A stretch of 64,000 nt of DNA from Holosporales bacterium (GCA_031266135.1 JAISBP010000007.1:617-64616), one strand, 5' to 3'. Counted from the first letter of the stretch, positions 5,531 through 58,243 are shown. Notes: generated by a model not told the origin, from the sequence alone. Program-made: numbers and translations.

Positions 5531-7624
5531 ATGCCGAATCCATCTTGGTTTTTCCCATATACTCAGGAAAATCTTCCCATCAAATTTAATATGAATGGCG
5601 CAGATAATGTTGTCGTCGTTAGGGCTCGAATTCGAGAACGTGTATCAAGTTTGTTGGAAGGCGATGTGTTCCTTCAAACTGGACGTGAGATTGATTTACA
5701 GGCATTCATAGGAGAGCCGTGCAAACTCTCAATTCAATATCAGGAAGATACGTTTAGGTATTTTGATGGCGTGATATCACATGCGTCCCTTACAAATATG
5801 CCGCATTTAGATGGAGATAACACCGATAGCATCATCCATTTAACATTCCGTTCGCCTTTATATTTGTCGAATCTAGGTCTTAAGTATAGACTCTTTCAAG
5901 ATATAACTACCGAAGATATACTTCGGCAAATCCTAAAAGAAAACAGAATATCCAATGTAGACATAAATCTGCGGAATGCTGGCCAGGAGATGTCTCCTTT
6001 GTGCGTTCAGTACCATGAAAGTGACTACCAGTTCTTTTTACGCTTATCTCAAGCACACGGTATCTTCTTTTATGATTCGTATTCTGACGGAGATTCAGCG
6101 TTTCATCTATCTGACTGCAGCCTATCTTCTCCTAAAATCCAAACAAAGCTACAGATATTAAAGATGCATGTCGAAGGTATGTATAGATGCGATATGGCTT
6201 TTAACGTATTTCGCGGAATGTCTGCCGGAACGAGGCAGGTTGATGTTTCAGCTTTTAATGAACAAAAGGCTGAAGTTATGCATGGTATCTCCTCTGATAC
6301 TTCGTTACCTTTCAACCTTGGAGAAGTAGAAAATTTTGATCACCTTTTCCTGGAGAAAACTGATGGAGATACTCTTGCAAAATTGGAACTTCAACGTGCC
6401 AATAGTTGTTCCATACAACTAAAGGGTCGAAGCTTTTGCCCGGAATTAAGTCCAGGATTGTTGTTTGATATTACTGGATCAAAATCATCCAGTCATAATG
6501 GTGAGTTTTTTGCGTACGACGTTGAGCACGTTATAGAGCAGTTCCCAAACAGAGGTGATGGCGGGCCGATGTATGTGAATACCTTTGAAGCTATCCCGAG
6601 CTCGGTTCCTTATGTTCCTCCCATCACGCAACCCAGTCCCAGGATTTATGGATGCCAGACGGCGACGACCACAGGGCCCGAGGGAGAAGAGGTATTCTGT
6701 GATGATCAGGGAAGAATTAAGATCAAGTTTCATTGGGATTTTCGGTCCGAGACGGATGATAAAAGCTCGTGCTGGGTGAGGGTTTCTCAATCCTGGGCCG
6801 GTCCTAATTTTGGAGCACTGGTTACTCCCAGAATCGGCATGGAGGTAGTCGTCGTATTCCTGGACGGAGATCCAGATCAACCACTTGTAACTGGGTGCAT
6901 ATATAATGGCATCAATCCACCACCAGGGAATTATCCATCGGATTTAAAGCTGGCATCCACCTTCTATTCATCCTCAACGAATGAAGTTAGAATAAACGAT
7001 GAGGAAGAGAAAGAGGAAATATTTATTCATGCTCAAAAAGATATTAATATTGTGGTCGAAGACAGTGTAACAGAAACATTAAATATTGGATCCAAGATTA
7101 CTAAACTTGAAAGTAATAAAGATCCGGTCGTGCATTCTCTGTATATTAATAAAGGTGATAAAACAGAGGAAATTGGTGAGGGTAATATTACGATCACCAT
7201 CAATAAGGGAAATAATAGCATTACCCTGGGTGAAGGTGATTCTGAGACTAGTGTTACTGGGAACGTGGTTATAAAGGCAACTAAGGATATAACATTTAGT
7301 TGTGATGGAGTATTCAAAGTTGATGCGGCTAAGGGTATAGAGCTCGGGACACAGACCAATATATCCCTTAAAGCTCAGCAGAATTTCGAAGTAACATGTT
7401 TGGCGTGGAAGGCAGAAGCTCAGACTACCATAGAATTCAAAGCTCTCAGTATGAAATTTGATGCAACGGCCAATTTTGAGATTGGTGCAGCGATGTTCAA
7501 TGCCTCGGCCACGGCTTCAATCACAATAAGCAGCCAGGCAGCCGCCAACATATCAGCGGCGATACTGAGCCTTAGCGGATCTGCCGGAGCATCACTCTCC
7601 GGCGCCATGGTTAAGTTGGGTTAA
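5531..7624 (+). CDS. vgrG: type VI secretion spike protein VgrG (no effector extension)
   Basis: 697 aa with a gp27-like N-terminus and a gp5 OB-fold region (WAGPNFGALVTPRIGMEVVVVFLDGDPDQPLVTGCIYNG). The C-terminus is a repetitive beta-helix. Confidence 0.85.
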   Translation: MPNPSWFFPYTQENLPIKFNMNGADNVVVVRARIRERVSSLLEGDVFLQTGREIDLQAFIGEPCKLSIQYQEDTFRYFDGVISHASLTNMPHLDGDNTDSIIHLTFRSPLYLSNLGLKYRLFQDITTEDILRQILKENRISNVDINLRNAGQEMSPLCVQYHESDYQFFLRLSQAHGIFFYDSYSDGDSAFHLSDCSLSSPKIQTKLQILKMHVEGMYRCDMAFNVFRGMSAGTRQVDVSAFNEQKAEVMHGISSDTSLPFNLGEVENFDHLFLEKTDGDTLAKLELQRANSCSIQLKGRSFCPELSPGLLFDITGSKSSSHNGEFFAYDVEHVIEQFPNRGDGGPMYVNTFEAIPSSVPYVPPITQPSPRIYGCQTATTTGPEGEEVFCDDQGRIKIKFHWDFRSETDDKSSCWVRVSQSWAGPNFGALVTPRIGMEVVVVFLDGDPDQPLVTGCIYNGINPPPGNYPSDLKLASTFYSSSTNEVRINDEEEKEEIFIHAQKDINIVVEDSVTETLNIGSKITKLESNKDPVVHSLYINKGDKTEEIGEGNITITINKGNNSITLGEGDSETSVTGNVVIKATKDITFSCDGVFKVDAAKGIELGTQTNISLKAQQNFEVTCLAWKAEAQTTIEFKALSMKFDATANFEIGAAMFNASATASITISSQAAANISAAILSLSGSAGASLSGAMVKLG

Positions 7625-7995: not shown

Positions 7996-8451
7996 ATGAC
8001 AGAAAAAACGGAAGGATTGATCACTCAAAATCAAATATCTCACGAAAGTATATTGGATCTTACAGTAAAACTAGCATCTGCATACATGGCTAATAATCAG
8101 GTTATGCTAGAAGATATAGGTACGGTTTTAAGGAAATCGTTTGTAGCTGTCGTTGATATTAAAGGTGAAGCTGTTAATATCAAAAATAAGCCGTTCCTAA
8201 CTCCGGCAGTTCCAATCGAGGAATCAGTGCAGGATGATTACATTGTCTGTTTAGAAGATGGGAAAAAACTTCAGATGCTCAAAAGACACCTGAACACAGT
8301 ATACGGATTAACTGTAGAGCAGTATAAAGAGAGATGGGGACTTTCGCTGGACTATCCAGTGGTATCTCCGAGCTATGCCAGACGCCGTAGCGATATTGCA
8401 AAGACGACTGGGCTTGGAAGCACTGGGAGAAAAAAGCTGAAAGTTGCCTGA
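7996..8451 (+). CDS. mucR: MucR/Ros-family zinc-finger transcriptional regulator
   Basis: 151 aa. The segment DDYIVCLEDGKKLQMLKRHLNTVYGLTVEQYKERWGL matches the Ros/MucR core. The upstream region is very AT-rich. Confidence 0.85.
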   Translation: MTEKTEGLITQNQISHESILDLTVKLASAYMANNQVMLEDIGTVLRKSFVAVVDIKGEAVNIKNKPFLTPAVPIEESVQDDYIVCLEDGKKLQMLKRHLNTVYGLTVEQYKERWGLSLDYPVVSPSYARRRSDIAKTTGLGSTGRKKLKVA

Positions 8452-10207: not shown

Positions 10208-10825
10208 ATGTCATTTGGAGAAATTGATAAACTAGTAAGCTGTATTGGGCGTCTGCCTGGGATAGGCATAAGATCTGCCGTGAGAATAGTTGTGCATCTT
10301 CTTAGACGAAGAGATTCCGTCATGGTTTATCTAATCAGGTCGCTGACTAACGTATATGAAAAATCTAAAAAATGTGAAGTATGTGGCAATATAGACGTTA
10401 AATCTCCGTGTTTTGTATGTTCAGATCGTAAAAGAGATGACAATACGATATGTATTGTGTCCGATGTATCTGATCTATGGGCCATAGAGAGGGCCGGATT
10501 TTACAGAGGCAGATACCATGTTTTGGGCGGAAAACTTTCGGCATTCGATGGGATACGTCCAGAAGATGTAGATATAGATAAATTAAAAAGAAGAATTATA
10601 GGCCAAGTTTCAGGGTCTGGCGAAGTAAAAGGTATCAGCGAGGTAATAATAGCGATGAGCGCCGATCTCGATGGTCAAACAACTATGTTTTTTGTTAAGG
10701 ATAAAATCAAGGAATTGAGTGTGAAGGTTACGACCCTTTCTAACGGAGTTCCAATCGGAAGCGATATTGAGGGCCTAGATGATGGAACCATAATAGCAGC
10801 CTTTAAACAACGTCACGATATTTAA
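10208..10825 (+). CDS. recR: recombination protein RecR
   Basis: HhH motif LPGIGIRSAVRI, a C4 zinc finger (CEVCGN...CFVCSD) and a Toprim domain. Confidence 0.9.
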   Translation: MSFGEIDKLVSCIGRLPGIGIRSAVRIVVHLLRRRDSVMVYLIRSLTNVYEKSKKCEVCGNIDVKSPCFVCSDRKRDDNTICIVSDVSDLWAIERAGFYRGRYHVLGGKLSAFDGIRPEDVDIDKLKRRIIGQVSGSGEVKGISEVIIAMSADLDGQTTMFFVKDKIKELSVKVTTLSNGVPIGSDIEGLDDGTIIAAFKQRHDI

Positions 10826-10892
10826 ATATATTACGAATCTTTTCAGCTCCTTTGTGCGTTTAGTTAAAAAAGCCAAGCAATCCTAGTTACAT

Positions 10893-11038
10893 TAGACCTC
10901 TTTCGTAACTCTCCATAATCAGTCTTCTGCTGCGTCGATACGGTACTCGAATCCTCATGTACACCAAAGTACACTGCGGTTCTGCGTGCCGTCTCTCCTT
11001 CCATAAGAACTGATTCTGGAGGTTTTGAAAGAGGTCTA
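10893..11038 (+). repeat. RPE-like palindromic element, full copy (146 bp, forward orientation)
   Basis: Runs from TAGACCTCTTTCGTAACTCTCCATAATCAG to CTGATTCTGGAGGTTTTGAAAGAGGTCTA. The arms are reverse complements. It lies between convergent recR and a YiiX-like gene. Confidence 0.9.
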
Positions 11039-11093
11039 TTAAATTACCTGGCTTTTTAATTGGCATTATGAGAATACTGAAATGTCTTTTATA

Positions 11094-11996
11094 TTACAAT
11101 ATGAGACAACACCCGTGTTCTGTATCATCATCGTCAAAACTAAACTTCTGTATCAAGGTGATTTCTGCGCCAGCTTTATCTTGAAGAATATCAAAAGCAC
11201 AAGCCCAAGATCCAAGCATTTCCGGAATAACATTGCTTACATTTTCAATATTTATTCCAACAACTTGTCTACAGAATAATGCTACTAACTCACTACAAAA
11301 TACTCTTCTAGTATCTTCTTCTTTATTTGCTTCTAAAGTCGATCTTAGAAGCTCTGTAAAAGTTGCAAATCCTTCATAGGGGCGCGCTAAATTCTCTTTT
11401 GCAAAGTTAATTACTCCATCATGTGGCACTGGCACTCTCAGTTGCCTAACATAAACATTACCAGGATAATTTTCGATAACCAATTCTAGAGGTGTGAGCT
11501 GGACATGTGGAGGAATTCCTCGAAAAACCTGCCCCGGAGTTCCTGTTGCCTCCAAACAAAATGGAATCAGTGTATCAGGATCGTATCCTTGCAATGATTC
11601 ACGCATTAGCATTAAGGCTTCTGGTTGTGGCACGTAGTCTAGCCTTGACTCTGCAAGATTGTTGAAAGAATTCAGAACTTCTGTGACTTCTGTCGGAGTC
11701 GCGACGACGACCATTCCAGAATGGGATAATCTCAGGGGATTTGGAATGTCATTTAGGTTTGATGCTAGCCTTATGACGCCACCCTGCAGCCCCGATGCTG
11801 CAAAATTAAGAATGTCTCCGTCTCTGATCCGTTCGTGTCGTTGGGCGCTCCCCGTGGGTCCTTGATCGTTAAATATAAGATGCGGTGTTGGCGTTTCGGA
11901 TATTGGGTAATCCACGAACTGACCGGCATTCGCTTGATGGTAAAATATTGCTAGTGTTAAAAGTGTTTTAGTTAAATAATGCATAATATACCTCAA
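11094..11996 (-). CDS. secreted YiiX/C92-like permuted papain-fold protein (paralogue 1)
   Basis: Signal peptide. GDILNF, then the His motif LSHSGMVVV, then the Cys motif FCSELVALFC; this His-before-Cys order is typical of permuted NlpC/P60-YiiX enzymes. It shares the FCSELVALFC motif with the ORF at 57002-58063. Confidence 0.6.
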   Translation of the reverse strand: MRYIMHYLTKTLLTLAIFYHQANAGQFVDYPISETPTPHLIFNDQGPTGSAQRHERIRDGDILNFAASGLQGGVIRLASNLNDIPNPLRLSHSGMVVVATPTEVTEVLNSFNNLAESRLDYVPQPEALMLMRESLQGYDPDTLIPFCLEATGTPGQVFRGIPPHVQLTPLELVIENYPGNVYVRQLRVPVPHDGVINFAKENLARPYEGFATFTELLRSTLEANKEEDTRRVFCSELVALFCRQVVGINIENVSNVIPEMLGSWACAFDILQDKAGAEITLIQKFSFDDDDTEHGCCLIL

Positions 11997-13480: not shown

Positions 13481-13680
13481 GGAATCATGAGAAGCTCTGT
13501 AAGTGTATTTTAATTGTTTGCAAAAATGCAGCACAAAGTTTCTATGGTCTTTAACCTATCTAGAATCAATCCGCCTGATTCTGGAGGTTTTGCGTGGCGG
13601 TTGCCGTTCTTTAAATAACCATATCTTTTAATACAGTCAAGTGTATAATCTCTGGTGTCGGGAATTCCGGGAGCCATGTT

Positions 13681-15556: not shown

Positions 15557-17029
15557 ATGGCCGATAGAAAGCATGCCCTTCCCGTTAGCAGGAAAGAAGA
15601 TTTCTCAGCCTGGTACCAGGCCGTTACTGCTGGGGCGGATCTCGCTGAAAATGCTTGTGTACGAGGGTGCATGGTCATCAAGCCATATGGTTTCGCGATC
15701 TGGGAGAGGATGCAGGCCATTATGGATGCTAAATTTAAAGAACTTGGCCACTGTAACTGTTACTTCCCATTGCTAATTCCAGTGGATCTCTTTGAACGAG
15801 AAGCGGATCACGTCGCCGGTTTCGCGAAGGAAATGGCGATCGTAACTCACCACAGACTCGAACAAAGAGACGGGAAATTAATACCGGCATCTCCACTTGA
15901 GACTCCCCTTGCCATTCGGCCCACCTCTGAGTTGATCATCGGTGAATCAATGTCGAGGTGGATTAAGTCATATCGCGATCTTCCGGTCCTGATTAATCAA
16001 TGGTGCAATGTAATGAGATGGGAAATGAGAACCAGGCTGTTCTTAAGGACATCCGAGTTTCTGTGGCAGGAAGGACATACGGCGCATGAAACCGAGGAAG
16101 AGGCCAGGAAAGAAGCCAGAACCATGCACGACGTATACTATTGGTTTGTTCATGATATCCTGAAGATCTCATGTATTCCGGGGAAAAAGCCTGATCATGA
16201 TAGATTCGCTGGAGCAGTTGATACGTTCTCGATAGAAGCCATGATGCAAGATGGAAAAGCTTTGCAGGCGGCGACTAGTCATTACCTAGGGCAAAACTTT
16301 GCGAGAGCCATGAATATCCAATTTCAAGGCCGAGATGATAAATTACATTTGGCTCATACGACGTCGTGGGGATCAACTACGCGACTCATCGGTGGCTTAA
16401 TCATGGTACACTCCGATGATGACGGCCTAAATCTGCCGAGTGAAGTAGCTCCATACCACGTCGTTATTATTCCGCTTTTGAAGGGATCTGATCGTGATGA
16501 CGACATAGTTTCTTTCTGCCATAGTATCAAGAGAGCCATCGAAAAATCTGCGAGGGTATTTATCGATCTCAAAGAGGCGGAGGCGCAGAATAAGAAATGG
16601 GATTATGTGAGGAAAGGCGTGCCACTAATCTGCGAGATCGGTCTTAGAGAGCTAGAAGATCAATCTGTGAGTATCATAAAGCGTGCCAGTAATTTGGAGA
16701 AGCTCCGAATACCATTGAATAAGTTTGAAGAGCAAATAGAGGATATGCTAATAGAACACGATAAAATACTTCAGCAAAAAAATGAAGAATATTTCAGAGA
16801 GAATACTAGGGACGATATTAAAACATATTCGGAACTTAAAGAATTATTTGAAACTGAAAATAAATTCGTCATAGCAAAATGGTCTGGATCACAGGAGAAT
16901 GTAAATCTTCTTGACGAGATAGGAATTACCATTAGGTGTATACCACGCCAACAAAGTAATGCAAAAGGAAAATGCATCCTCACGAACGAGGATGCAGATA
17001 TGGATGTAATCCTCGCAAAGAGTTATTAG
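15557..17029 (+). CDS. proS: prolyl-tRNA synthetase (short type without the editing insertion)
   Basis: 490 aa with the N-terminus FSAWYQAVTAGADL..RGCMVIKPYGFAIWE and class II motifs. Confidence 0.9.
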   Translation: MADRKHALPVSRKEDFSAWYQAVTAGADLAENACVRGCMVIKPYGFAIWERMQAIMDAKFKELGHCNCYFPLLIPVDLFEREADHVAGFAKEMAIVTHHRLEQRDGKLIPASPLETPLAIRPTSELIIGESMSRWIKSYRDLPVLINQWCNVMRWEMRTRLFLRTSEFLWQEGHTAHETEEEARKEARTMHDVYYWFVHDILKISCIPGKKPDHDRFAGAVDTFSIEAMMQDGKALQAATSHYLGQNFARAMNIQFQGRDDKLHLAHTTSWGSTTRLIGGLIMVHSDDDGLNLPSEVAPYHVVIIPLLKGSDRDDDIVSFCHSIKRAIEKSARVFIDLKEAEAQNKKWDYVRKGVPLICEIGLRELEDQSVSIIKRASNLEKLRIPLNKFEEQIEDMLIEHDKILQQKNEEYFRENTRDDIKTYSELKELFETENKFVIAKWSGSQENVNLLDEIGITIRCIPRQQSNAKGKCILTNEDADMDVILAKSY

Positions 17030-17041
17030 TTGTTCAGCTTT

Positions 17042-17142
17042 GTTAACTCAGATACTTTATAATCAGCTTCTTGATACGTCAATCCGGTGCTCGAATACCT
17101 CCTTCCATAAGATCTGATTCTGGAGGTTTTGAAAGGAATCCT
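17042..17142 (+). repeat. RPE-like element with the central part deleted
   Basis: GTTAACTCAGATACTTTATAATCAGCTTCTTG ... CCTTCCATAAGATCTGATTCTGGAGGTTTTGAAAGG. An opposed fragment lies at about 17395-17445. Confidence 0.75.
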
Positions 17143-17515
17143 TTAAGAATGTGTTAATTTACAAAAAATATTTTTTTGTTAAAAAAGTGAAAGTTTCTTG
17201 GAGGAGATAGATTTTGTTATTACGTGGTATTTCGATGTAATACAATATTCGGTAAAATCACAGCTTTGCTAAGTCTGTACAAACACTGGCCAGTACAAAT
17301 CTATCTATTTTTAAAAACTCTCAAAAAAGTATAAGGTGCTGAATATACTTCTCTTTCTATCCAACTTAGTGTGAGGTGTATCCATTGAACCTCGTCCAAA
17401 GCTCAAGAATCAGATCTTAAGGAAGGAAAGACGTAACGGAATCCAGTGATGCAATTAAGTGTCCCACCCCAACTAAATTAATGGCGGAGATCCATGATTA
17501 AGAATAGAGTGAGCA

Positions 17516-18327: not shown

Positions 18328-20003
18328 GTGCATTGGTACCATCTGTAAGCCCCCCTGAGGCTTACGCCGGGCGTTTTTGGAGCGAACCATTTTGAAGTCT
18401 GACAATAACGGATAGGAGCTAGATAATAGGCTGTTAGAGTTGCATAAGGGGAAGTTAGCAAGGAATACGTAATCCCGAAATCCAAACGTAGCAACATAAA
18501 CAGTAGATTTAGTATTGTCGTTCAAAAGGTACCTTAGTGGACAGTGAATAGTAATCGTGGAATATCGTGATATAGTATTCTGTTTTTTGGATTGGTAATC
18601 GTGTTTTTCTTTTTGCAGAAAAAACGAATTTCAGGAAACCTAGGTGAGTTACGCATTTGACGTATTCAATTGTCGATATTTCTCACGATGAGGAGCAATC
18701 TATAGAAGAGCCGGCTTACCAATCCAAGCCACCAGATAATCTCATATCAACATCATTTCTGATGGAACTCATTTGCGAAAGAGACAATCTCAACTTAGCC
18801 TACAAAAGAGTATATCAAAATAAGGGGATCGCTGGTTTCGATAAGATTACCGTATCGCAATTACCGGAATGGATCAAGAAGAACAAAGAAGAGTTTATAG
18901 GATCATTATTGGATGGAACGTATAGGCCGCGTCCAGTAAAAGGAATTTATATATCCAAACCAAAGGGGCGTGGAGCACGTTGTATCGGAGTTTTGAGCGT
19001 CATCGATAGACTCGTGCAAAATGCTATCTTTCAGATCATTAGTGATTCAATAGATAGCACGTTCAGTGACAACAGCTACGGGTTCAGGAAAAACAGGGGC
19101 GCCTTGAATGCCATCCAACAAACCAGGAAATACATTCTAGATGGATATAAATATGTCGCCGATATAGATATCGAAAAGTTCTTTGATAATATTCATCATG
19201 ATAAGGTGATGTATAAGCTATCCATGTTCGTGCGGGATAAAAGGGTCCTGGCGATCGTACGGAGATTCCTGCAGGCGGGTATGTGGAGGTATGATCTCTA
19301 CATAGAAAAAGAAAAGGGAATATATCAGGGTGGCTCGTTATCGCCACTTTTATCGAATCTATTGCTACACGATATCGACGTTTTACTCGAGAAACGGGGG
19401 CATGTGTTCTGTAGATACGCCGATGATATCAAGATATTTACACGGAGTCTCAAGGCCGCGGAACGAGTCCTACTTTCCACCAGTAAATATTTATCACGTA
19501 ATTTAAGGCTTAAATGTAATGAGAAGAAGACGAAGGCATGTCCAGTGCAATTTTCGGAATTCTTGGGTTATAAAATGGATGATAATGCTCTACTGACTGC
19601 GACGCAGGAGAATATTGATCACCTGAAATATAAGGTCAAAAAATTGACTAAAAGATCACGATTTATAGATGTGAAAGTCATGATAATGGAACTGAATCAG
19701 GTTATAGTTGGATGGACTTCATACTTTCGCTTTGATTACCGCCAGGAAACGTATAGAGAAATCGATACGTTATTGAGACGCCGGATCCGGGCCAACATCT
19801 TCCGGCGAGCCATCGTCCTCAGATCAAAGGGGTTGGCATGGATACGATCCATCGGTTGCCGGAACTGCAATATCGATTTCGCAAAGACGCTGTGGAGCTA
19901 TAATCTCTCAATAGGTCGCGCCAATTACGTCATTCCAAATAGTTGGTTTTTATCTAACAATCTTCGATCAGTTTTACAGTGTAAAGAAAAGTATAGGCAG
20001 TCT
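18328..20003 (+). mobile_element. group II intron remnant (5' RNA domains plus the IEP ORF; no domain V/VI found)
   Basis: A GTGCA motif at 18328 is a possible 5' end, with structured-looking sequence before the ORF. The ORF tail runs straight into an RPE copy. Both boundaries are approximate. Confidence 0.5.
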
Positions 20004-20042
20004 GAGATTATATTTGGTAGCTCTGAACAATCATCTTCTTAA
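18657..20042 (+). CDS. group II intron-encoded reverse transcriptase/maturase (no endonuclease domain)
   Basis: RT motifs ISKPKGRGARCIGVLSVIDRLVQNAI, SYGFRKNRGALNAI and FCRYADDIKIF, plus an X/thumb domain GWTSYFRF. The likely real start is the Met at 18762. The last roughly 13 codons are RPE-derived. Confidence 0.8.
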   Translation: MTYSIVDISHDEEQSIEEPAYQSKPPDNLISTSFLMELICERDNLNLAYKRVYQNKGIAGFDKITVSQLPEWIKKNKEEFIGSLLDGTYRPRPVKGIYISKPKGRGARCIGVLSVIDRLVQNAIFQIISDSIDSTFSDNSYGFRKNRGALNAIQQTRKYILDGYKYVADIDIEKFFDNIHHDKVMYKLSMFVRDKRVLAIVRRFLQAGMWRYDLYIEKEKGIYQGGSLSPLLSNLLLHDIDVLLEKRGHVFCRYADDIKIFTRSLKAAERVLLSTSKYLSRNLRLKCNEKKTKACPVQFSEFLGYKMDDNALLTATQENIDHLKYKVKKLTKRSRFIDVKVMIMELNQVIVGWTSYFRFDYRQETYREIDTLLRRRIRANIFRRAIVLRSKGLAWIRSIGCRNCNIDFAKTLWSYNLSIGRANYVIPNSWFLSNNLRSVLQCKEKYRQSEIIFGSSEQSSS

Positions 20043-20117
20043 TGTACGCTCAAGCGCACTCTTGGTACCGTGCTTCCTTCCAATAATTCTGATTCCGTAG
20101 GTTTCGAAAGAAATCTA
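20004..20117 (+). repeat. RPE-like element, internally deleted, containing the RT stop codon
   Basis: The right arm CCTTCCAATAATTCTGATTCCGTAGGTTTCGAAAGAAATCTA is clear. The left arm GGTAGCTCTGAACAATCATCTTCTT matches the consensus more weakly. Confidence 0.65.
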
Positions 20118-20118
20118 T

Positions 20119-21390
20119 TCAATCTATCAGAAGATTCACAATAATGCTGAGCGGGATGATGATGACGGCAGCCCATCCCATATACCATAGAAACGACGGC
20201 ATCTTTACTCCGTTTTTTTGTGCTATTGATTTGACCATCATATTTGGAGCATTCCCGATATAGGTCATCGATCCCATGACAACCGCACTCACAGAAATGG
20301 CCTTCAGAATATTGGGAGAAGAAGTCATGAGCTCAGATGCATCGCCACCGGCCATATTGAAGAACAACAGATATGACGGAGCATTATCCAGGAACGAAGA
20401 CGCCAGCGCACACATTGAAAAATAGATAGTAGATTCATCGAAATACTGTTTCCATTCATCAATCTGTCGATGAAGTAAATCTGAATTGGTTTCGAGAGTA
20501 AATAGAACCGGAGCAATCACTATAAATATTACAAAGAACGTGATGGCGACCTCACGGAATGGTACTAGATCAATTGTATGACCTCTCTCAGAGTTTCTTC
20601 TAAATATTATGGAAATAATACTTGTAGTAATTAACAATATACTACGCATCATAATCCCTATAGAATCAATAAACAATATAAAAATCGTAGATATTATTAA
20701 ACATATATTCAAGACGCCAAAAATTTCAATTCGTTGGCTATAGACCTTCTCTTCACTTGGCAATGGATTGTCTTTTAGCATTCTGCAATCTATTAAATAT
20801 AAGATCGTAAGGCATGGTATTAGGTATATCAGCCAATAGATAAATAAGTTCTCAATTTCCCATAGAAAATGTACTCCCTTGAGGTATCCGATCAGAAGCG
20901 GAGGGTCTCCCAGTGGGGTGAGTATTCCCCCAATATTTGAAACTAAAAATATAAAAAATATTACGAGGTGAGTCTTATTTTCTCGCGATTTATTCATTGC
21001 TAAGAAAGGGCGCAAGAACAATATTGAGGCTCCGGTCGTCCCTATTAGTGATGAAAAGACACTGCTACCTCCGAGAAATATGATGTTGGCCATCGTACTC
21101 GGCCTACGTTGAATACTAATGTGAATACCGTTGCTCAATACATAGAGTGTAAAAAGTGTAATAATAAATGGAATATAATCATCTGTTATTACGTTCTTTA
21201 ATATTGTGACGGACTTATCTGAAATCAATGAAAAGGAAATTACAGAAATAATAGATAATAAAACTAATATTATGGTTTCATATTTGTGCCAGAATTTTGG
21301 AAGAATTAAAGGTAACAGAGCCATCGATAGTAACAAAATAACTAACGGCAATGATAACGCAATTACCTGAAATGTATTTAAAAGCTGCAC
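20119..21390 (-). CDS. NhaD/ArsB-family ion transporter (putative Na+/H+ antiporter)
   Basis: 423 aa, polytopic, with GDPPLLIGY and FLDNAPSYLLF motifs. Confidence 0.6.
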   Translation of the reverse strand: MQLLNTFQVIALSLPLVILLLSMALLPLILPKFWHKYETIILVLLSIISVISFSLISDKSVTILKNVITDDYIPFIITLFTLYVLSNGIHISIQRRPSTMANIIFLGGSSVFSSLIGTTGASILFLRPFLAMNKSRENKTHLVIFFIFLVSNIGGILTPLGDPPLLIGYLKGVHFLWEIENLFIYWLIYLIPCLTILYLIDCRMLKDNPLPSEEKVYSQRIEIFGVLNICLIISTIFILFIDSIGIMMRSILLITTSIISIIFRRNSERGHTIDLVPFREVAITFFVIFIVIAPVLFTLETNSDLLHRQIDEWKQYFDESTIYFSMCALASSFLDNAPSYLLFFNMAGGDASELMTSSPNILKAISVSAVVMGSMTYIGNAPNMMVKSIAQKNGVKMPSFLWYMGWAAVIIIPLSIIVNLLID

Positions 21391-25696: not shown

Positions 25697-26530
25697 TTGG
25701 AGTATACTGAAACTATTCGGCAGATTATCTCGCGGTATGACCTTTTAAAAGATAAGTATCGATCAAAGCATTTTGGACAACACTTCCTTTGCGACCAGTC
25801 CCTTCTCGATAAAATAGCGAGGTGTGCATTACCGTTTGATGATGCAGATATCGTAGAAATAGGGCCAGGGCCATGTGGATTAACGCGGTCTATCATTGGG
25901 TTGTGCAAAACGAATAAAGTTTATTGTATAGAAAAAGACTATACTCTCGAACAACTACACCGTAACGTTTTAGATGGAGTAAGTAATTGCCACATCATTT
26001 ACGGCGATGCCCTCAAGATTATACCCCAATCATTGACACCTAGTAAGATCATTATTATATCAAATCTTCCATATAATGTCGGCACTCAGCTTCTTATTAA
26101 TTGGCTCCTTAATTTACGAAACATTGAAAGGATGGTCCTAATGTTTCAGAAAGAAGTGGCCGATAGGATTTGCGCTTCTCCATGCACTAAGGAATACGGA
26201 AGATTAAGTATTATATCTCAGCTGCTATGCAGAGTTGAAAAACTGTTCCCAGTATCGAGGTTGGCATTCTATCCGCAGCCACAAGTTAATTCCTTCGTCA
26301 TTAGGTTAACACCAAAAAATGCAGAAATTAAAAACATTGATAATCTGCAGAAATTAACTCAATATTGCTTTCAACATCGTAGGAAAATGATTAATTCAAT
26401 ACTAAGATACTATTACAACGAATCTAATATTGAATTAATTCTTAGGAAATGCGCAATCGAGAAGACTGTACGCCCTGAAGAAATCTCACCCTTAAAGTTT
26501 TTGGAATTGTCTCAATATCTTGACATATAG
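25697..26530 (+). CDS. rsmA: 16S rRNA (adenine1518/1519-N6)-dimethyltransferase
   Basis: KHFGQHFL, the SAM motif EIGPGPCGLT and NLPYNVGT. TTG start. Confidence 0.9.
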   Translation: MEYTETIRQIISRYDLLKDKYRSKHFGQHFLCDQSLLDKIARCALPFDDADIVEIGPGPCGLTRSIIGLCKTNKVYCIEKDYTLEQLHRNVLDGVSNCHIIYGDALKIIPQSLTPSKIIIISNLPYNVGTQLLINWLLNLRNIERMVLMFQKEVADRICASPCTKEYGRLSIISQLLCRVEKLFPVSRLAFYPQPQVNSFVIRLTPKNAEIKNIDNLQKLTQYCFQHRRKMINSILRYYYNESNIELILRKCAIEKTVRPEEISPLKFLELSQYLDI

Positions 26531-26547: not shown

Positions 26548-26636
26548 TAGGCCCATTTCGTAACCTTCATAATCAGCTTCTTGGTGTACACGAAAGTATA
26601 CTACGCTTCTATGCGTCGTCTTTATTCCCAATAATG
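26548..26636 (+). repeat. RPE-like element, truncated or degenerate
   Basis: TAGGCCCATTTCGTAACCTTCATAATCAGCTTCTTGG ... TATTCCCAATAATG. It lies between convergent rsmA and rlpA. Confidence 0.65.
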
Positions 26637-26668: not shown

Positions 26669-27343
26669 CTAAATATAACTTCCGAGACGCTTGGGCTTCC
26701 TCTTTCCTCGCACTGGTTCATCAGTGGGCATTTTATGGGCAGCATAATACTGTGGTCGAATTCCAAGGATTTCCTGAAAATATAATTGGGCCCATGTTCG
26801 ACCGAATGGGTCCTTTCTTCTTTTGCAATAGGAATGTATATAGCGAGATAGGTTCAGACTGTCCGAAACTAGGCACTGTACTCTGACCATCGATGGTTTA
26901 AGCCGCGATACACCAAGATTTTTAGCGGCTCCATAAGATAAATCTATAATGCGGCCTCGATAGCCGTATGGCCCCCTATCATCAACTACCACTATAATCG
27001 ATTTACCATTCACTAAACTCGTTACCTTGACCACAGATGGAAGTGGAAGAGTTCTATGAGCCGCTGTCATAGTTAATTTATTGAACGCCTCCCCAGTGGC
27101 CTTTGGCTTACCATGACATTCCGGACCATACCATGAAGCAAGCCCAGTTTCATCGTATTCATAATGGGTTTGTGGATAGTACCAGGAGCCCCTCACGAAA
27201 TATGGTCTGCATGAAATACGTGTTGGTCCAGCTGGAGTTTTTACGGGCGTGCATCCGTAAAGAATGGCTATAATTCCAATAACTAATATACACCTTTCCA
27301 AATTCTTCACGATAAACCTTTCATCTAGCTCTCTTCCTAACAA
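26669..27343 (-). CDS. rlpA: RlpA-family septal lytic transglycosylase (DPBB domain)
   Basis: GLASWYGPECHGKPKATGEAFN....TAAHRTLPLPS.VKVT....GKSIIVVVDDRGPY. Confidence 0.8.
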   Translation of the reverse strand: MLGRELDERFIVKNLERCILVIGIIAILYGCTPVKTPAGPTRISCRPYFVRGSWYYPQTHYEYDETGLASWYGPECHGKPKATGEAFNKLTMTAAHRTLPLPSVVKVTSLVNGKSIIVVVDDRGPYGYRGRIIDLSYGAAKNLGVSRLKPSMVRVQCLVSDSLNLSRYIHSYCKRRKDPFGRTWAQLYFQEILGIRPQYYAAHKMPTDEPVRGKRKPKRLGSYI

Positions 27344-27441
27344 TTCTTAGGAAGAATACAAATGTACCCGTCAAAAATAACCCTTACGAGAGGATGGGAT
27401 CCATTATAATATAGCCGAAATTATTTTGTATTCTAAATCTA

Positions 27442-28593
27442 ATGAAGAAGCTGAATATTCAAATCCTGGAGAATCTCATTGGATTCAATACGGTGACTCC
27501 CAACGGGGAGAAAGCCATTAAATATTGCTCCAGTCTACTGGGAAATCTCGGATTTCAGTGCTACGAACTAAATTATAATGGAGTAAGTAACCTATACGCT
27601 AAGTTGGGTAACTTTGATCGGAATCTATGCTTTGCGGGACATGTTGATGTTGTGCCACCATGCGGTGACTGGAGCGTTGATCCATTCATTCTAACACGCC
27701 GGGACGGTAAATGTTACGGAAGAGGTGCCAACGATATGAAGGGGCCATTATCGGCCTGCCTATCCGCCATCAGTAAATTTGTTTGCTCCAATACCAATAC
27801 TTGTATACCATTTTCTATTAGTATGATACTCACGAGTGATGAAGAAATAATGGGAGGGAACGGCACGAATAAAGTAATCGATTTTCTAAAGGCAAAAAAT
27901 GAAAAAATAACTGGGTGCATTTTGTGTGAAAGCTGTTCTCCTGGGGATAAGTCTGGTAATTACATTAAGATCGGGTGTCGAGGAAGTCTCAACGTTGATC
28001 TAATATCGTATGGGGCTCAATGTCACGTTGTAAACGGCAGTGCTTTCGGGAATCATATTCATAAATTTATTTCAGATTTACATGAATTACTTCATAAAAC
28101 CCTGGATACAGGTGATGATATATTCCCACCGTCAAGTATCGAAATAACATCTATAGATACCGGCAATGATGTTCGGAATGTTATACCAAGTCAATTACAT
28201 GCCAAATTAAATATCAGATTTAATAGAGCTTGGAGTTTTGAGGATTTGGAGAAATATATTGTAGATAGCTTTCCGGGTAATATTGAAGTTATATTCGAGA
28301 GATTTAGAGGGCCCATCATCTGTGCTCAGCCAGAATTCATTTCATATATTAGAGAATCGATTACAGAAATCACTGGTAGTGCCCCAGAAGTCGGTGCATT
28401 CGGTGGAAATTCAGATGCAATTTTCATTGGAGATATCACGGATGTTGTAGAGGTTGGATCTCCTGTAATCGGGGCACATACCATCGATGAATGTATCGAC
28501 GAAGAACAACTAGATCTCCTCGAGCAAATTTATTTAAGAATATTACAGAAAACGGATGAACTAGAAAGATCAGACAACTCCCCGTTTAGTTAA
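27442..28593 (+). CDS. dapE: succinyl-diaminopimelate desuccinylase (M20 family)
   Basis: FAGHVDVVP, GRGANDMKG and SDEE motifs. 383 aa. Confidence 0.85.
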   Translation: MKKLNIQILENLIGFNTVTPNGEKAIKYCSSLLGNLGFQCYELNYNGVSNLYAKLGNFDRNLCFAGHVDVVPPCGDWSVDPFILTRRDGKCYGRGANDMKGPLSACLSAISKFVCSNTNTCIPFSISMILTSDEEIMGGNGTNKVIDFLKAKNEKITGCILCESCSPGDKSGNYIKIGCRGSLNVDLISYGAQCHVVNGSAFGNHIHKFISDLHELLHKTLDTGDDIFPPSSIEITSIDTGNDVRNVIPSQLHAKLNIRFNRAWSFEDLEKYIVDSFPGNIEVIFERFRGPIICAQPEFISYIRESITEITGSAPEVGAFGGNSDAIFIGDITDVVEVGSPVIGAHTIDECIDEEQLDLLEQIYLRILQKTDELERSDNSPFS

Positions 28594-28737
28594 TTCTTTA
28601 TGCAAGAAACATAAAGGATCAAGATTAACGCATCAATGAAGACGGATTATAAAGATGGTGTGGACAATCCTATCGTGTGCCGGGCAATCCAAGATTTTGG
28701 ATCGCCCATGATACTCTGTTTTGTTCATCCAGAACCG

Positions 28738-30162
28738 TTATTCTGGTGTCTCTGGCTCCCACCCCGCTCGGACTCGGTCTCTCTGCTCCTGGAGCTCGGT
28801 AATAAGCGCATCGAAAGCTGGTATTTGGCCCACCACATTTACCAGAACCTTTGGGTTTTGGTATTTCCGCATATTTAATCTGGGAAGAAATCTTGCGGTT
28901 CTCTGTATTTCTTGCACGATGCTAGTAAATTCCGCTATAGCATCAGGATCTCCTGGACCAATTCTTGTCCGGCAATCCGGCAAATTAATACGATCTTCTA
29001 ATTTAAGATACCATCTTCCATCAGACGCTCTTTCCTTTGATGCATCTCCATAATTGTGATATACGAATGATATTATCTGACGCTTGGATGGACTAAATGG
29101 ATGCTGTGGAGATTGCTGTGCGGTGAAGCTCTTAAACTGTCTAGAATCTTGAATTGGAGGATTAAGCAATATGGTTAGTAATTCAAGTTGCTCCTTTTGA
29201 CCAACTATATGCTCTACTTGTCCCGTAAAGAAGGATATTCGAAGCGAATCCAGTTCTGGAAAACAGGATCTCAAAAAAAGTGTAAAAGGATCTTCTGTTA
29301 GTACTATATTCGCTTGAAGTCTAGGCAAGAATTCACTTAGTTTTGTTTCATCAGAATTAGGAACACATTGAGCTACCGTAGTGAACTCATCAAAAGGTGT
29401 ATCTGAAGGAACCACAGCAAAACCATCTTTCGGATCTCTCGGTGGTTGAAGGATTTGTATCAACCAATCTCGCACATGCGGAGGACACGAACCTAAACGA
29501 TGCTGTGTATACTCAACGCTACCGGGCTCTGGGCCATGTGCCAGCGTTCCCATGATACTGTGGGCCAATTCTAGAATAGCCGGATCAGCTATTTGTTGGC
29601 AATTTATCTGGATATAGCGTTGATGAATAAACCAGTTGTGAGCAGCTGGACAAAAAATGTCAGGAATTACAGAAACCTCGAAATACAGTGCCCCGGCGAC
29701 ATTGGCCAACGCTTCCGGGAGCGTAAAGCGTATTCCATTCCTCTGGGCCTCATGATCCGTTATCACGTGAATTTTGCAGTTCCCGGAGAACAGGTGACAC
29801 CCGAGGAGAAACTCCACAGGGGACAAGCTAGACTTCAGAGCATCCAACTGACCGACACAGTCTGTTAGAGCATTCCCCACAGGTCCATTGCCACCTCCGA
29901 AGGCTATAACGGATTTGATTATGAGTGTTCTAAACGGCCCCCTTTCGTATAGTTTCTTGACGGACTGGTCCTTCAGCAGCCACGTTACCTTTACAGCATC
30001 TGGGTTAACCAACCTAGATTCGTTGACTAGGTTGACTTCGGGGAGAGGAGGCATACCGGCCCGCGGATCCCTGGTAGCCTGTGCCAAGCTCATGCCCCCT
30101 AACATCATGATGACCGTCGACACGATGCCTTTATAGTGGAGCCTCGCTTTATTTAACTTCAT
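28738..30162 (-). CDS. MKLNK-leader secreted protein family, member C (most divergent)
   Basis: 474 aa with the signal peptide MKLNKARLHYKGIVSTVIMMLGGMSLAQA and a C-terminal IGPGDP block shared with the two neighbours. Confidence 0.7.
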   Translation of the reverse strand: MKLNKARLHYKGIVSTVIMMLGGMSLAQATRDPRAGMPPLPEVNLVNESRLVNPDAVKVTWLLKDQSVKKLYERGPFRTLIIKSVIAFGGGNGPVGNALTDCVGQLDALKSSLSPVEFLLGCHLFSGNCKIHVITDHEAQRNGIRFTLPEALANVAGALYFEVSVIPDIFCPAAHNWFIHQRYIQINCQQIADPAILELAHSIMGTLAHGPEPGSVEYTQHRLGSCPPHVRDWLIQILQPPRDPKDGFAVVPSDTPFDEFTTVAQCVPNSDETKLSEFLPRLQANIVLTEDPFTLFLRSCFPELDSLRISFFTGQVEHIVGQKEQLELLTILLNPPIQDSRQFKSFTAQQSPQHPFSPSKRQIISFVYHNYGDASKERASDGRWYLKLEDRINLPDCRTRIGPGDPDAIAEFTSIVQEIQRTARFLPRLNMRKYQNPKVLVNVVGQIPAFDALITELQEQRDRVRAGWEPETPE

Positions 30163-30214
30163 ATCCTGTCCTCCTTTAGCATTCTAAATGAACATTACAT
30201 TTTAATTTTGCAAT

Positions 30215-30244
30215 GATATAACACTTTTCTATTTCTCCCGTCTA
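30215..30244 (-). promoter_or_regulatory. putative sigma70-type promoter of family member C
   Basis: On the coding strand, TAGACG-N18-TATATC. The block is conserved upstream of all three paralogues. AGGAGG RBS before the ATG. Confidence 0.4.
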
Positions 30245-30283
30245 GCCTCTTATGAATCTTTTGTAGAGGCGCTGCATCCGCAT

Positions 30284-46199: not shown

Positions 46200-46377
46200 T
46201 TTCCAGAGTTAATTACAGCGATATCCCATGAATTTATGATAAACCAAACTTTATGCGAAAACCACACAATATGTTGAGGGGGGCATGAATTACCACTAAA
46301 GAATGATCAGAGTTCATCCGAGTTATGTTTTGATGCATAGGAGAAATATATCCAGCAATAAATATTTCTTTCTTGCA

Positions 46378-46582
46378 CAAAAATATTTTTTGTTTCACGG
46401 GAAATATTCCCTGAAAATTAACGGATTCTTAATGTTTTTACGCTATTTTCATATACACCACCGCCGACCCCCACCCACCCGGGATACTACCATGTTTCGC
46501 TTAATAAAACGTTAATGACTCCATAAATTTAACGTTGATAGTTGGTTATGGCGGAGATCAGACGCACTCTAGGATTTAGCCT
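46378..46582 (+). repeat. repeat family B, copy 2 (longest)
   Basis: CACGGGAAATATTCCCTGAAAATTAACGGATTCTTAATG ... ACCCCCACCCACCCGGGATACTACC ... TTAATAAAACGTTAA ... CTAGGATTTAGCC. Confidence 0.8.
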
Positions 46583-48319: not shown

Positions 48320-48455
48320 TAGACCTCTTCCTAAACTCTCCATAACCAGTCTTCTGTTGCGTCGATACGGTACTCAAATCCTCATGTACATTCTGGTTCT
48401 GCGTTCCGTTTCTCCTTTCATAAGATCTGATTCTGGAGGTTTTGAAAAAAGTCTA
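48320..48455 (+). repeat. RPE-like element, 136-bp copy with a small internal deletion
   Basis: TAGACCTCTTCCTAAACTCTCCATAACCAG ... GATCTGATTCTGGAGGTTTTGAAAAAAGTCTA. Confidence 0.85.
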
Positions 48456-57001: not shown

Positions 57002-58063
57002 ATGAATAAATCAATTATTTATAGTTTACTATATTTGTACTTAATGCTAAATCATAATTGTTCTTCAGAAGAATTGACTACAGCGCATTTCAGCTCTCCT
57101 CTCTCGGAGGAAGAACAGCAAAGAACAAGGTGTATTGCAGAGAAGCAAGGATTCTGTGAGATTTTTAATGATGGTGAAATTCCTAACGGAAGTCTGGCTA
57201 TCACAGCTGGGTTGAGTTTTTTCAATGATACCACGCGGAGTCTCAGTCGTTTCAAGCATCGTTGTAATCCATTGGGCATTAGCCATGTACTTTTAGTTAT
57301 CAATGACTATCCGTCAGAAATTATTAAACTGATTGAAGAAAAGATGCAAGACACAGCTGATCCAGATGCGATAGTGCTCATGCAACGAATGATAGAAAAC
57401 ATCCGTGACAAAGTTACTCTGGATGAGAGTGGTGGTGACATCCTGATTCCGTTCGTATTTGAGGCAGATACGACATGCTGGCTCTGTCCATTAACCCAGT
57501 ATTTAGATGGGGAACGAAATTTATATCTACGATTGCGCAAGAGAGACGTTCAGCAGCTTAGCCTGGAATACTCCAGAAATTTTGTGAGGAGGTGGTTGTG
57601 CGTATCTTACCCATTCTGGATGGATTCTGTTCGTCTGGTAGCCTGCCCACTCGGACGTAATTCCCCTCAATACGACTATGAAAATATTTTTTGCAGCGAA
57701 TTGGTTGCGCTATTTTGCAATATCGCTAATGCCAGTAACGTTGTCCCATCAGAATTTAGCTCAACATCCGGACCGGAGCACGATCTTGTAAGAGATATGG
57801 TCGAACCCGATGTACCAGTAATGCTGGTCCGAGACTTTAGCCCTGCAGAAGCGAACGGCTTAACTTTTACTGGCTCTCTGTTAAGGGGAAGCGTGAATAC
57901 TATTATTTTTACGTATGATTATATAGCGTCTCCCATCCTCACTTCTCTACAAACAATGTCCTCAATACCTGAGAAAACTGGGTTAAAATTTAGAGCACTA
58001 TGGAATATGATATTACCGTCTCACCTGCCTGATACGTCACCTAATCAACCTCAGAATATTTGA
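57002..58063 (+). CDS. secreted YiiX/C92-like permuted papain-fold protein (paralogue 2)
   Basis: Signal-like N-terminus, the His motif LGISHVLLVI and then the Cys motif FCSELVALFC, which is identical to the decapeptide in 11094-11996. Confidence 0.55.
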   Translation: MNKSIIYSLLYLYLMLNHNCSSEELTTAHFSSPLSEEEQQRTRCIAEKQGFCEIFNDGEIPNGSLAITAGLSFFNDTTRSLSRFKHRCNPLGISHVLLVINDYPSEIIKLIEEKMQDTADPDAIVLMQRMIENIRDKVTLDESGGDILIPFVFEADTTCWLCPLTQYLDGERNLYLRLRKRDVQQLSLEYSRNFVRRWLCVSYPFWMDSVRLVACPLGRNSPQYDYENIFCSELVALFCNIANASNVVPSEFSSTSGPEHDLVRDMVEPDVPVMLVRDFSPAEANGLTFTGSLLRGSVNTIIFTYDYIASPILTSLQTMSSIPEKTGLKFRALWNMILPSHLPDTSPNQPQNI

Positions 58064-58100: not shown

Positions 58101-58243
58101 AGACTTCTTTCCAAACCTTCAGAACCAGATCTTATGGAAGGAGATCCGGCACTCAGAACCGCAGCGTACTTTAACGCACGTGAGGATTTGAGTACCGGCT
58201 CGACGCAGCAGAAGACTGATTATGGAGATTTCGAGAGAAATCT
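58101..58243 (-). repeat. RPE-like element, near-full copy (reverse orientation on the plus strand)
   Basis: AGACTTCTTTCCAAACCTTCAGAACCAGATCTTATGG ... GCAGAAGACTGATTATGGAGATTTCGAGAGAAATCT. It contains the stop codon of the ferredoxin-like gene. Confidence 0.85.

Follow-up and report, generated by a model that had tools for sequence, protein, structure and literature searches.

A palindromic repeat family in a Holosporales genome is probably a lineage-specific branch of the Rickettsia palindromic element RPE-1

Introduction

Rickettsia palindromic elements (RPEs) are the textbook case of selfish DNA inside protein-coding genes, and they are treated as a peculiarity of Rickettsia. RPE-1 was reportedly described by Ogata et al. 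in Science in 2000 and originally defined as Rickettsia-specific. Some RPE families have been suggested to predate Rickettsia (PMC1779305). RPE inserts in Rickettsia proteins were described as tolerated surface loops (PMC2229807; PMC10969869), and a 2008 review lists the RPE target duplication as '?' (PMC2229807). Among other protein-coding palindromic repeats, RPE-4/-6/-7 and the Wolbachia palindromic elements carry frequent ATGAC motifs (PMC3767692). Coxiella burnetii QMITE1 is a MITE with an ORF able to fuse in-frame to host genes (PMC10969869).

Here we analysed a stretch of 64,000 nucleotides from a Holosporales bacterium (GCA_031266135.1, JAISBP010000007.1:617-64616; the window). The original prediction, made from this DNA, was a palindromic repeat family which is RPE-like or MITE-like. 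The data presented below indicate that the repeats most probably constitute a lineage-specific RPE-1 subfamily, i.e. non-autonomous, MITE-like mobile DNA in the genome of a member of the Holosporales (Alphaproteobacteria).

Results

Copies in the window

An nhmmer model was built from six near-full copies and run over the 64-kb window; a repeat search was run as well. An imperfect palindrome of 146 bp was found in six full and about seven partial copies (Table 1). The copies are 68-91% identical to each other. The six near-full copies were recovered by both methods exactly where they had been predicted. The predicted internally deleted or truncated copies were also recovered, with the boundaries listed in Table 1, and so were the fragments at 17394, 39023 and, weakly, 37727; a further proposed fragment at 13574-13592 was not significant (E 0.16). 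Three copies are indeed 146 bp long, but the ends TAGAC...GTCTA are not common to all three, as the copy in gyrA ends TAGAT...ATCTA.

Table 1. Repeat copies in the window and the two ORFs which host in-frame copies.
Feature	Position	Strand	Evidence or context
Full 146-bp RPE-1-type copy	10893-11038	+	nhmmer E 2e-49; intergenic
Internally deleted copy, hairpin tip missing	17054-17139	+	Directly 3' of proS stop (15557-17029, +)
Fragment, model positions 93-137	17394-17438	-	nhmmer
Right half, model positions 61-146	20038-20117	+	nhmmer
Internally deleted copy	26550-26633	+	nhmmer
gyrA, host of in-frame copy	33230-36055	+	C-terminal tail ESTESDVMERKSDF also RPE-derived
Full 146-bp copy, open frame, within gyrA	35128-35273	-	nhmmer and repeat finding
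Left-part fragment, model positions 102-133, E 0.009	36011-36042	-	Last gyrA codons
Full 146-bp copy, stop-bearing orientation, flanks ATT/ATT	37187-37332	+	nhmmer
Weak fragment, E 0.006	37727-37769	-	nhmmer
Right-part fragment, model positions 21-87	39023-39089	-	N-terminus of lpxB ORF
Copy with 10-bp deletion at hairpin tip, flanks AAT/AAT	48320-48455	+	Divergent intergenic region
Near-full copy, ends mutated	58101-58243	-	Between convergent 3' ends of ORF 57002-58063 (+) and NuoI-like ORF
NuoI-like 4Fe-4S ORF, 161 aa, host of in-frame copy	58220-58705	-	
149-bp copy, open frame, within NuoI-like ferredoxin ORF	58384-58532	+	nhmmer

Seven copies are intergenic: five are flanked by convergent 3' ends, and one each is in a tandem and in a divergent context. 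The copy at 10893 separates the 3' ends of recR (10208-10825, +) and an unknown ORF (11094-11996, -). Its unit proper extends from 10894 to 11037 and is bordered by a direct repeat ATT at 10891-10893 and 11038-11040. Similarly, the copy at 26550 is located between the convergent 3' ends of an rRNA adenine dimethylase gene (25697-26530, +) and a DPBB/RlpA-like gene (26669-27343, -). The truncated copy at 20038 starts with the stop codon of a group II intron RT/maturase ORF (18657-20042) and precedes the 3' end of a CitMHS transporter gene (20119-21390, -). This ORF is part of a group II intron remnant at 18363-20117, with Rfam domains D1-D4 at 18363-18540; a domain V/VI was not detected in this interval. 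Since the right half of the RPE begins at the RT stop codon, the 3' end of the intron seems to have been replaced or lost. The repeat copies themselves appear to decay via deletions at the hairpin tip.

Coding behaviour depends on orientation, as had been proposed, and was confirmed by six-frame translation. Of the six combinations of orientation and frame, one is free of stops. It is reverse frame 1, open in five of the six full copies; in the exception, the copy at 48320, the frame is shifted by the 10-bp tip deletion. Each of the forward frames runs into a stop within 8 codons. The earlier translation of the 10893 copy was correct. Copies in the stop-bearing orientation are present only in intergenic DNA or at the extreme 3' ends of genes.

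Relationship to RPE-1

The window model matched Rickettsia and Tisiphia copies over positions 1-146, at an identical length of 146 bp and with E down to 9e-25 (nhmmer). Identity between window and Rickettsia copies amounts to 82% in the core, 76% at the ends and 40% in the sub-terminal arms. The peptides of the open frame match NCBIfam TIGR01045, 'palindromic element RPE1 domain' (E 1e-9 to 1e-5). The curated cut-off of 30 bits was reached by four of six scanned proteins, three stand-alone copy peptides and full GyrA (38.1, 34.2, 30.7 and 31.4, the last within GyrA); two scored below it (27.8 and 25.3). Because the arms have diverged, the match spans profile positions 1-36 of 48 only. The peptide encoded in the equivalent frame of Rickettsia copies aligns with the window peptide, and this frame is open in 32 of 38 copies outside the window. 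DNA and peptide are thus both homologous, and this argues for membership in RPE-1, not for mere likeness. Judged by these alignments, the window repeats would be a divergent RPE-1 branch and no new kind of element. The MITE-like part of the original prediction stands as well: the repeats are short and multicopy, possess terminal inverted repeats and a target duplication, carry no transposase gene and show filled/empty polymorphism.

A 24-base conserved-core pattern was scanned over one genome per GTDB species and yielded at least 100 matches. Among the matches listed almost all are from Rickettsia, Candidatus Tisiphia and Rickettsiales MAGs; the list also includes at least seven Legionella genomes and one unclassified Pseudomonadota MAG. 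Matches in three Rhodococcus and one actinomycete were due to chance, no element being present there. Full-length Legionella copies of RPE-1 are located in loci L002, L011, L026, L032, L044, L077 and L082, with RPE1-domain ORFs called by PGAP. A profile of the window peptide retrieved small ORFs of the Holosporales MAG (locus tags LBJ92_) which PGAP names 'palindromic element RPE1 domain-containing protein', a name also used in Legionella norrlandica, L. anisa, L. feeleii, Tisiphia and Trichorickettsia. Automated annotation, then, already recognises RPE1 in this MAG. In the literature searched we found no paper reporting RPE-1 outside Rickettsiaceae.

Copies inside and at the ends of genes

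The frame used in gyrA is open end to end, as predicted. The insert, however, consists of 49 residues (about residues 630-678) and not of 48 codons: it appears as one clean 49-column gap in all seven aligned Holosporales homologues. In an AlphaFold model (57 homologues) residues 627-676 have pLDDT values of 29-42 compared with 80-90 for the flanking strands of the C-terminal domain. According to this model the insert is a tolerated surface loop.

The second in-frame copy is in the NuoI-like ORF. When the copy at 58384 was excised in silico, a split match turned into one continuous alignment with the NuoI models; residues 17-106, for example, aligned to TIGR01971 positions 1-99. All NuoI scores of the ORF are far below the equivalog cut-offs, and the gene may be degenerate. 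PGAP calls only a 91-aa 4Fe-4S protein which starts inside the copy, while the NuoI-like N-terminus lies upstream of it. A homologue search with the ORF returned only this 91-aa version from the same contig. The ORF at 58220-58705 is a case of repeat-induced mis-annotation. Its last codons (RFLSKSP) and its stop are supplied by yet another copy, that at 58101. In the same manner a GH5 cellulase ORF (35997-37202) ends within the copy at 37187, from which it takes its final four codons and its TAA stop (37200-37202). The lpxB ORF owes its N-terminus (MAVRHLNIHDDSSTVSTKQKTEYR) to the fragment at 39023-39089; LpxB of L102, the closest sampled relative (GyrA 85-89% identical), lacks this part. This has practical consequences. 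Around the copies, gene callers predict small 'RPE1 domain' ORFs which are spurious and put starts and stops in the wrong place; the gyrA tail, the NuoI-like gene and the start of lpxB are examples.

The gyrA-lpxB junction and insertions in a close relative

The gyrA gene of L102 contains neither an RPE copy nor the RPE-derived tail, and its distance to lpxB is 4 bp. In L104, a more distant Holosporales lineage, gyrA and lpxB overlap. The two genes are separated by about 3 kb in the window (35997-39090). A left part (36011-36042) and a right part (39023-39089) of an RPE mark the borders of this segment, which contains a full RPE copy and another repeat as well as the GH5 cellulase ORF and two unknown ORFs. 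It looks like DNA which was inserted into, or recombined through, an older RPE copy.

L102 possesses its own copies, at 6750-6895 and 8015-8159, which are located in-frame in lpxB and tsaE. They are 97% identical, and this suggests very recent transposition in that lineage. The Rickettsia endosymbiont of Pseudomimeciton antennatum and Tisiphia likewise have young copies, more than 95% identical. The lpxB gene of the window is empty at the L102 insertion site, with a 49-column gap. Window and L102 copies share about 69% identity. Because L102 is empty at gyrA and the junction but carries copies elsewhere, insertion must have continued after the lineages split. The identities within and between lineages further indicate that each lineage had its own bursts. 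In both Holosporales pairs (window gyrA/L102 and L102 lpxB/window) the sites are in variable loops of 73-81% identity, in which the duplication is unreadable at base level.

The hairpin and its maintenance

The element was predicted to fold into one long hairpin. Indeed, the 10893 copy has an RNA minimum free energy of -62.2 kcal/mol compared with -30.8 +/- 3.3 kcal/mol for shuffled sequences (z = -9.5); with DNA parameters z was -6.5. Next, 25 copies from the window, its relative, Rickettsiaceae, a Pseudomonadota MAG and Legionella were aligned. The consensus structure has 44 pairs. Standard pairs occupy 92.6% of the cells; column shuffling lowers this share to 78% and sliding the partners to about 40%. 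Compensatory changes were observed in 29 of the 44 pairs versus 17.7 in shuffles, a value reached by none of 500 shuffles. The arms differ between lineages yet co-vary, i.e. the hairpin is kept. The reverse strand folds slightly more stably in 20 of 25 copies; the effect is weak and does not separate RNA from DNA. The core is conserved at all codon positions, in intergenic copies too, which points to a constraint on the nucleic acid rather than on the protein.

Maintenance of the hairpin and the location of five of seven intergenic copies between convergent 3' ends raise the question whether the element has been domesticated. It might act as a bidirectional terminator or mRNA stabiliser between convergent genes, or the 48-residue peptide might be a useful module, its frame being kept in five of six window copies and in 32 of 38 elsewhere. 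Several observations argue against such a function. A terminator scan identified neither a T-run nor a terminator-like site, and no Rfam family matched the element (the best, sX9, had an E of 0.27, well below threshold). The insertion sites are not common to the nearest relative, copies decay by internal deletion and the gyrA insert is modelled as a disordered loop. Moreover, enrichment at 3' ends would be expected anyway from purifying selection against hits in promoters and coding regions, and conservation of the open frame can originate from a master copy. We therefore consider domestication unlikely and continue to regard the repeats as mobile DNA.

Host genome and spread among bacteria

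A protein named 'MAG: DNA gyrase subunit A [Holosporales bacterium]' shows 100% identity with the window GyrA, and the next approximately 40 homologues are all from Holosporales. This agrees with the original impression that the surroundings do not resemble Rickettsia. The window has about 42% GC, and its genes include those for VgrG, Ros/MucR, SecA, DnaK and LepA; the type VI secretion VgrG gene (5531-7624) adjoins the Ros/MucR regulator (7996-8451). The host thus is outside Rickettsia and Rickettsiaceae, which is a limit of the original naming of RPE-1 and not of homology. Could the copies stem from Rickettsia DNA by an assembly or binning artefact? This is unlikely because copies reside within Holosporales genes and have arm sequences of their own.

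We infer a horizontal transfer of RPE-1 among intracellular bacteria, by which it came to Holosporales and Legionella. The argument is based on the patchy taxonomic spread and on the absence of RPE copies in 22.6 kb each from two more distant Holosporales lineages, L104 and L105, the GyrA proteins of which are about 74-79% and 68-72% identical to that of the window. Subfamily-specific patterns had no match in metagenome contigs.

Alternatively, RPE-1 could be an ancient, vertically inherited alphaproteobacterial repeat which predates the split of Rickettsiales and Holosporales, with no horizontal acquisition. Both orders comprise intracellular Alphaproteobacteria, and an age beyond that of Rickettsia has been suggested for some RPE families (PMC1779305). 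However, RPE-1 is also present in Legionella, a gammaproteobacterium, and it is missing from the 22.6-kb samples of the two other Holosporales lineages. Further, the core is 82% identical between window and Rickettsia, far above the expectation for neutral DNA over that time, and insertion sites differ even between close relatives. Vertical descent is therefore very unlikely.

The copies in Holosporales and Legionella point to exchange among bacteria which share eukaryotic host cells, and RPE-1 insertion activity, at least in the recent past, extends to another order of intracellular Alphaproteobacteria.

Target-site duplication

For each full copy in the fetched loci, the 200-bp flanks were joined and searched against all loci to find empty sites. 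About ten orthologous empty sites were identified, all in other Rickettsiaceae genomes, at 80-97% identity. Each empty site was one base shorter than the flanks minus 146 bp, i.e. the net gain upon insertion is 147 bp. An example is the filled site TTTTATT-ATT-[AGAC...GTCT]-ATT-TTAAC and its empty counterpart TTTTATT-ATT-TTAAC.

The flanks of 73 copies whose ends are intact were then evaluated, with all taxa represented and the window included. The left triplet, which ends with base 1 of the element, equals the right triplet, which starts with base 146, in 57 of 73 copies. Matched triplets are ATT/ATT (31), AAT/AAT (22), AGT/AGT (2) and two single cases. The middle base is identical on both sides in 64 of 73 copies. 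For an outer control triplet, agreement between the two sides was limited to 4 of 73. A pyrimidine (C or T) occupies position -3 in 77% of the copies, and a purine (A or G) occupies position +3 in 79%. In the window, the copies at 10893 (ATT), 37187 (ATT) and 48320 (AAT) are flanked by perfect repeats; those of the two intragenic copies are imperfect.

In the simplest reading of these sequences, a 144-bp unit AGAC...GTCT would generate a 3-bp A-N-T duplication at a loosely symmetric Y-A-W-T-R target. The sequences would be explained equally well by an element of 146 bp which duplicates 1 bp at A|N|T; the two cannot be separated at this level because the A and T of A-N-T are invariant. The gain of 147 bp corresponds to 49 codons, in agreement with the 49-column gaps in the alignments of gyrA and lpxB. 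In the open frame the element accounts for 48 of these and the duplicated ANT for the 49th (ANT AGA CCT ... TCT ANT), and because this triplet is a codon the host gene can survive in frame.

These data do not support a TA duplication, which had been read from the ends of the copies, nor the sum derived from it (146 - 2 = 144 bp or 48 codons). The same applies to a MITE derived from IS630/Tc1-mariner, the insertion of which would add 144 bp. It is true that every intact copy starts with TA and ends with TA, and TA termini are found in many bacterial MITEs (PMC2229807). Yet filled and empty sites differ by 147 bp, the gaps in the proteins have 49 residues, and the repeated unit is A-N-T with a middle base which varies but matches on both sides in 64 of 73 copies. 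In addition, no DDE_3 or IS630-like ORF is present in the window, and a search that covered the window and about 0.86 Mb of fetched loci detected neither an IS630-type transposase nor a parent IS. This origin is most improbable.

Equally little weight is given to a Y1 transposase of the IS200/IS605 or RAYT type, which would place the palindrome next to a fixed tetranucleotide without duplication: the long hairpin spans the whole element and in several cases four bases (TATT or AATA) match on both sides, but the middle base varies (T, A, G) and is copied to both sides, i.e. a true duplication, ATT or AAT flanks occur irrespective of how the element is oriented, and the window has no Y1 or RAYT ORF. 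An IS200/IS605-like link of flank type to orientation had been considered and was dropped after all copies had been tabulated.

Mobilisation

How could a 144-bp unit with A-N-T duplications be moved? The repeats would depend on an enzyme acting in trans. A transposase would make cuts with a 3-bp stagger and would recognise the conserved ends and/or the core of about 60 nt, which is near-invariant across taxa. The hairpin itself may be needed for propagation because its arms co-vary between lineages. When it lands in phase in a tolerant surface loop, the element extends the protein and leaves it unbroken; gyrA and the NuoI-like ORF are examples.

A Pfam search of the 64-kb window identified no transposase ORF apart from the group II intron RT/maturase. 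A candidate parent element would be bounded by the termini AGACCTCTTTC...GAAAGAGGTCT and by A-N-T repeats. Neither the window nor the approximately 0.86 Mb of fetched loci contained a longer element with matching ends. Where such ends occurred singly or far apart, they proved to be chance pairs (27327-28893 of the window, over an M20 peptidase, and in L092, over a Kdo transferase) or variant right arms.

Possibly RPE-1 spreads horizontally among Rickettsiaceae, a Holosporales lineage and Legionella without a dedicated transposase. Then a conserved host enzyme would recognise core and hairpin and insert the 144-bp unit at A-N-T with a 3-bp stagger. To our knowledge no autonomous RPE partner has been reported since 2000. 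A host enzyme, if true, would explain this and also why the examined sequence contains none; still, we give this proposal only a slight chance of being correct. In any case, the insertion signature (144-bp unit, A-N-T duplication, 49 codons, Y-A-W-T-R) makes the question of mobility testable, as any candidate mobilising enzyme must reproduce 144 bp plus A-N-T.

Other features of the window

Another repeat family, about 170 bp long and unrelated to the first, has the core CACCACCGCCNACCCCCACCCACCCGGG and is present at 37380-37560 (-), 46373-46517 (+) and 61189-61396 (+), the third copy carrying a 50-bp internal insert. A tandem duplication of about 1.5 kb covers 60574-63640 (60574-60873 versus 62107-62406, 95%; 60973-61038 versus 62489-62554, 98%). 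Three tandem paralogous ORFs of 436-474 aa at 28738-33044 (-) had no Pfam match; their upstream segments are repeated.

Discussion

The cross-order distribution with lineage-specific insertion sites and the 147-bp signature are the results which matter most beyond the annotation label. How then do the window repeats compare with described elements?

Coxiella burnetii QMITE1, compared by its description, is similar in behaviour only. RPE-4/-6/-7 and the Wolbachia palindromic elements likewise are protein-coding palindromic repeats of intracellular Alphaproteobacteria; direct reading of the six window copies found no ATGAC. Classical MITEs such as Correia/NEMIS, ERIC and RUP share the small size, the multiple copies without transposase, terminal inverted repeats, a target duplication and occasional ORF fusion (PMC2229807; PMC10969869). 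In contrast to these, the inverted repeat of the window element spans its whole length, its duplication is 3 bp, A-N-T, and not TA, and one frame is systematically free of stops and in phase with the duplication.

The repeats annotated as RPE1 in L. norrlandica, L. anisa, L. feeleii and other Legionella are closer. Core, ends and length are as in the window, combined with a third arm variant. They differ in having a gammaproteobacterial host and a single copy in each locus fetched. The literature searched yielded no description of them.

The closest relative is RPE-1 of Rickettsia. It differs in its host, as the window belongs to a Holosporales MAG with about 42% GC outside Rickettsiaceae, and in the sub-terminal arms, which are about 40% identical though co-varying, so that the C-terminal part of the peptide diverges. 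Shared are the length of 146 bp, the ends TAGAC...GTCTA, the A-N-T flanks and a near-invariant central core, CGTCGA..GGTACTCGAATCCTCAYGTAC...GTACRCTGCGGTTCTGCGT. Shared, too, are the open strand and frame, a homologous peptide and in-frame insertion into housekeeping genes.
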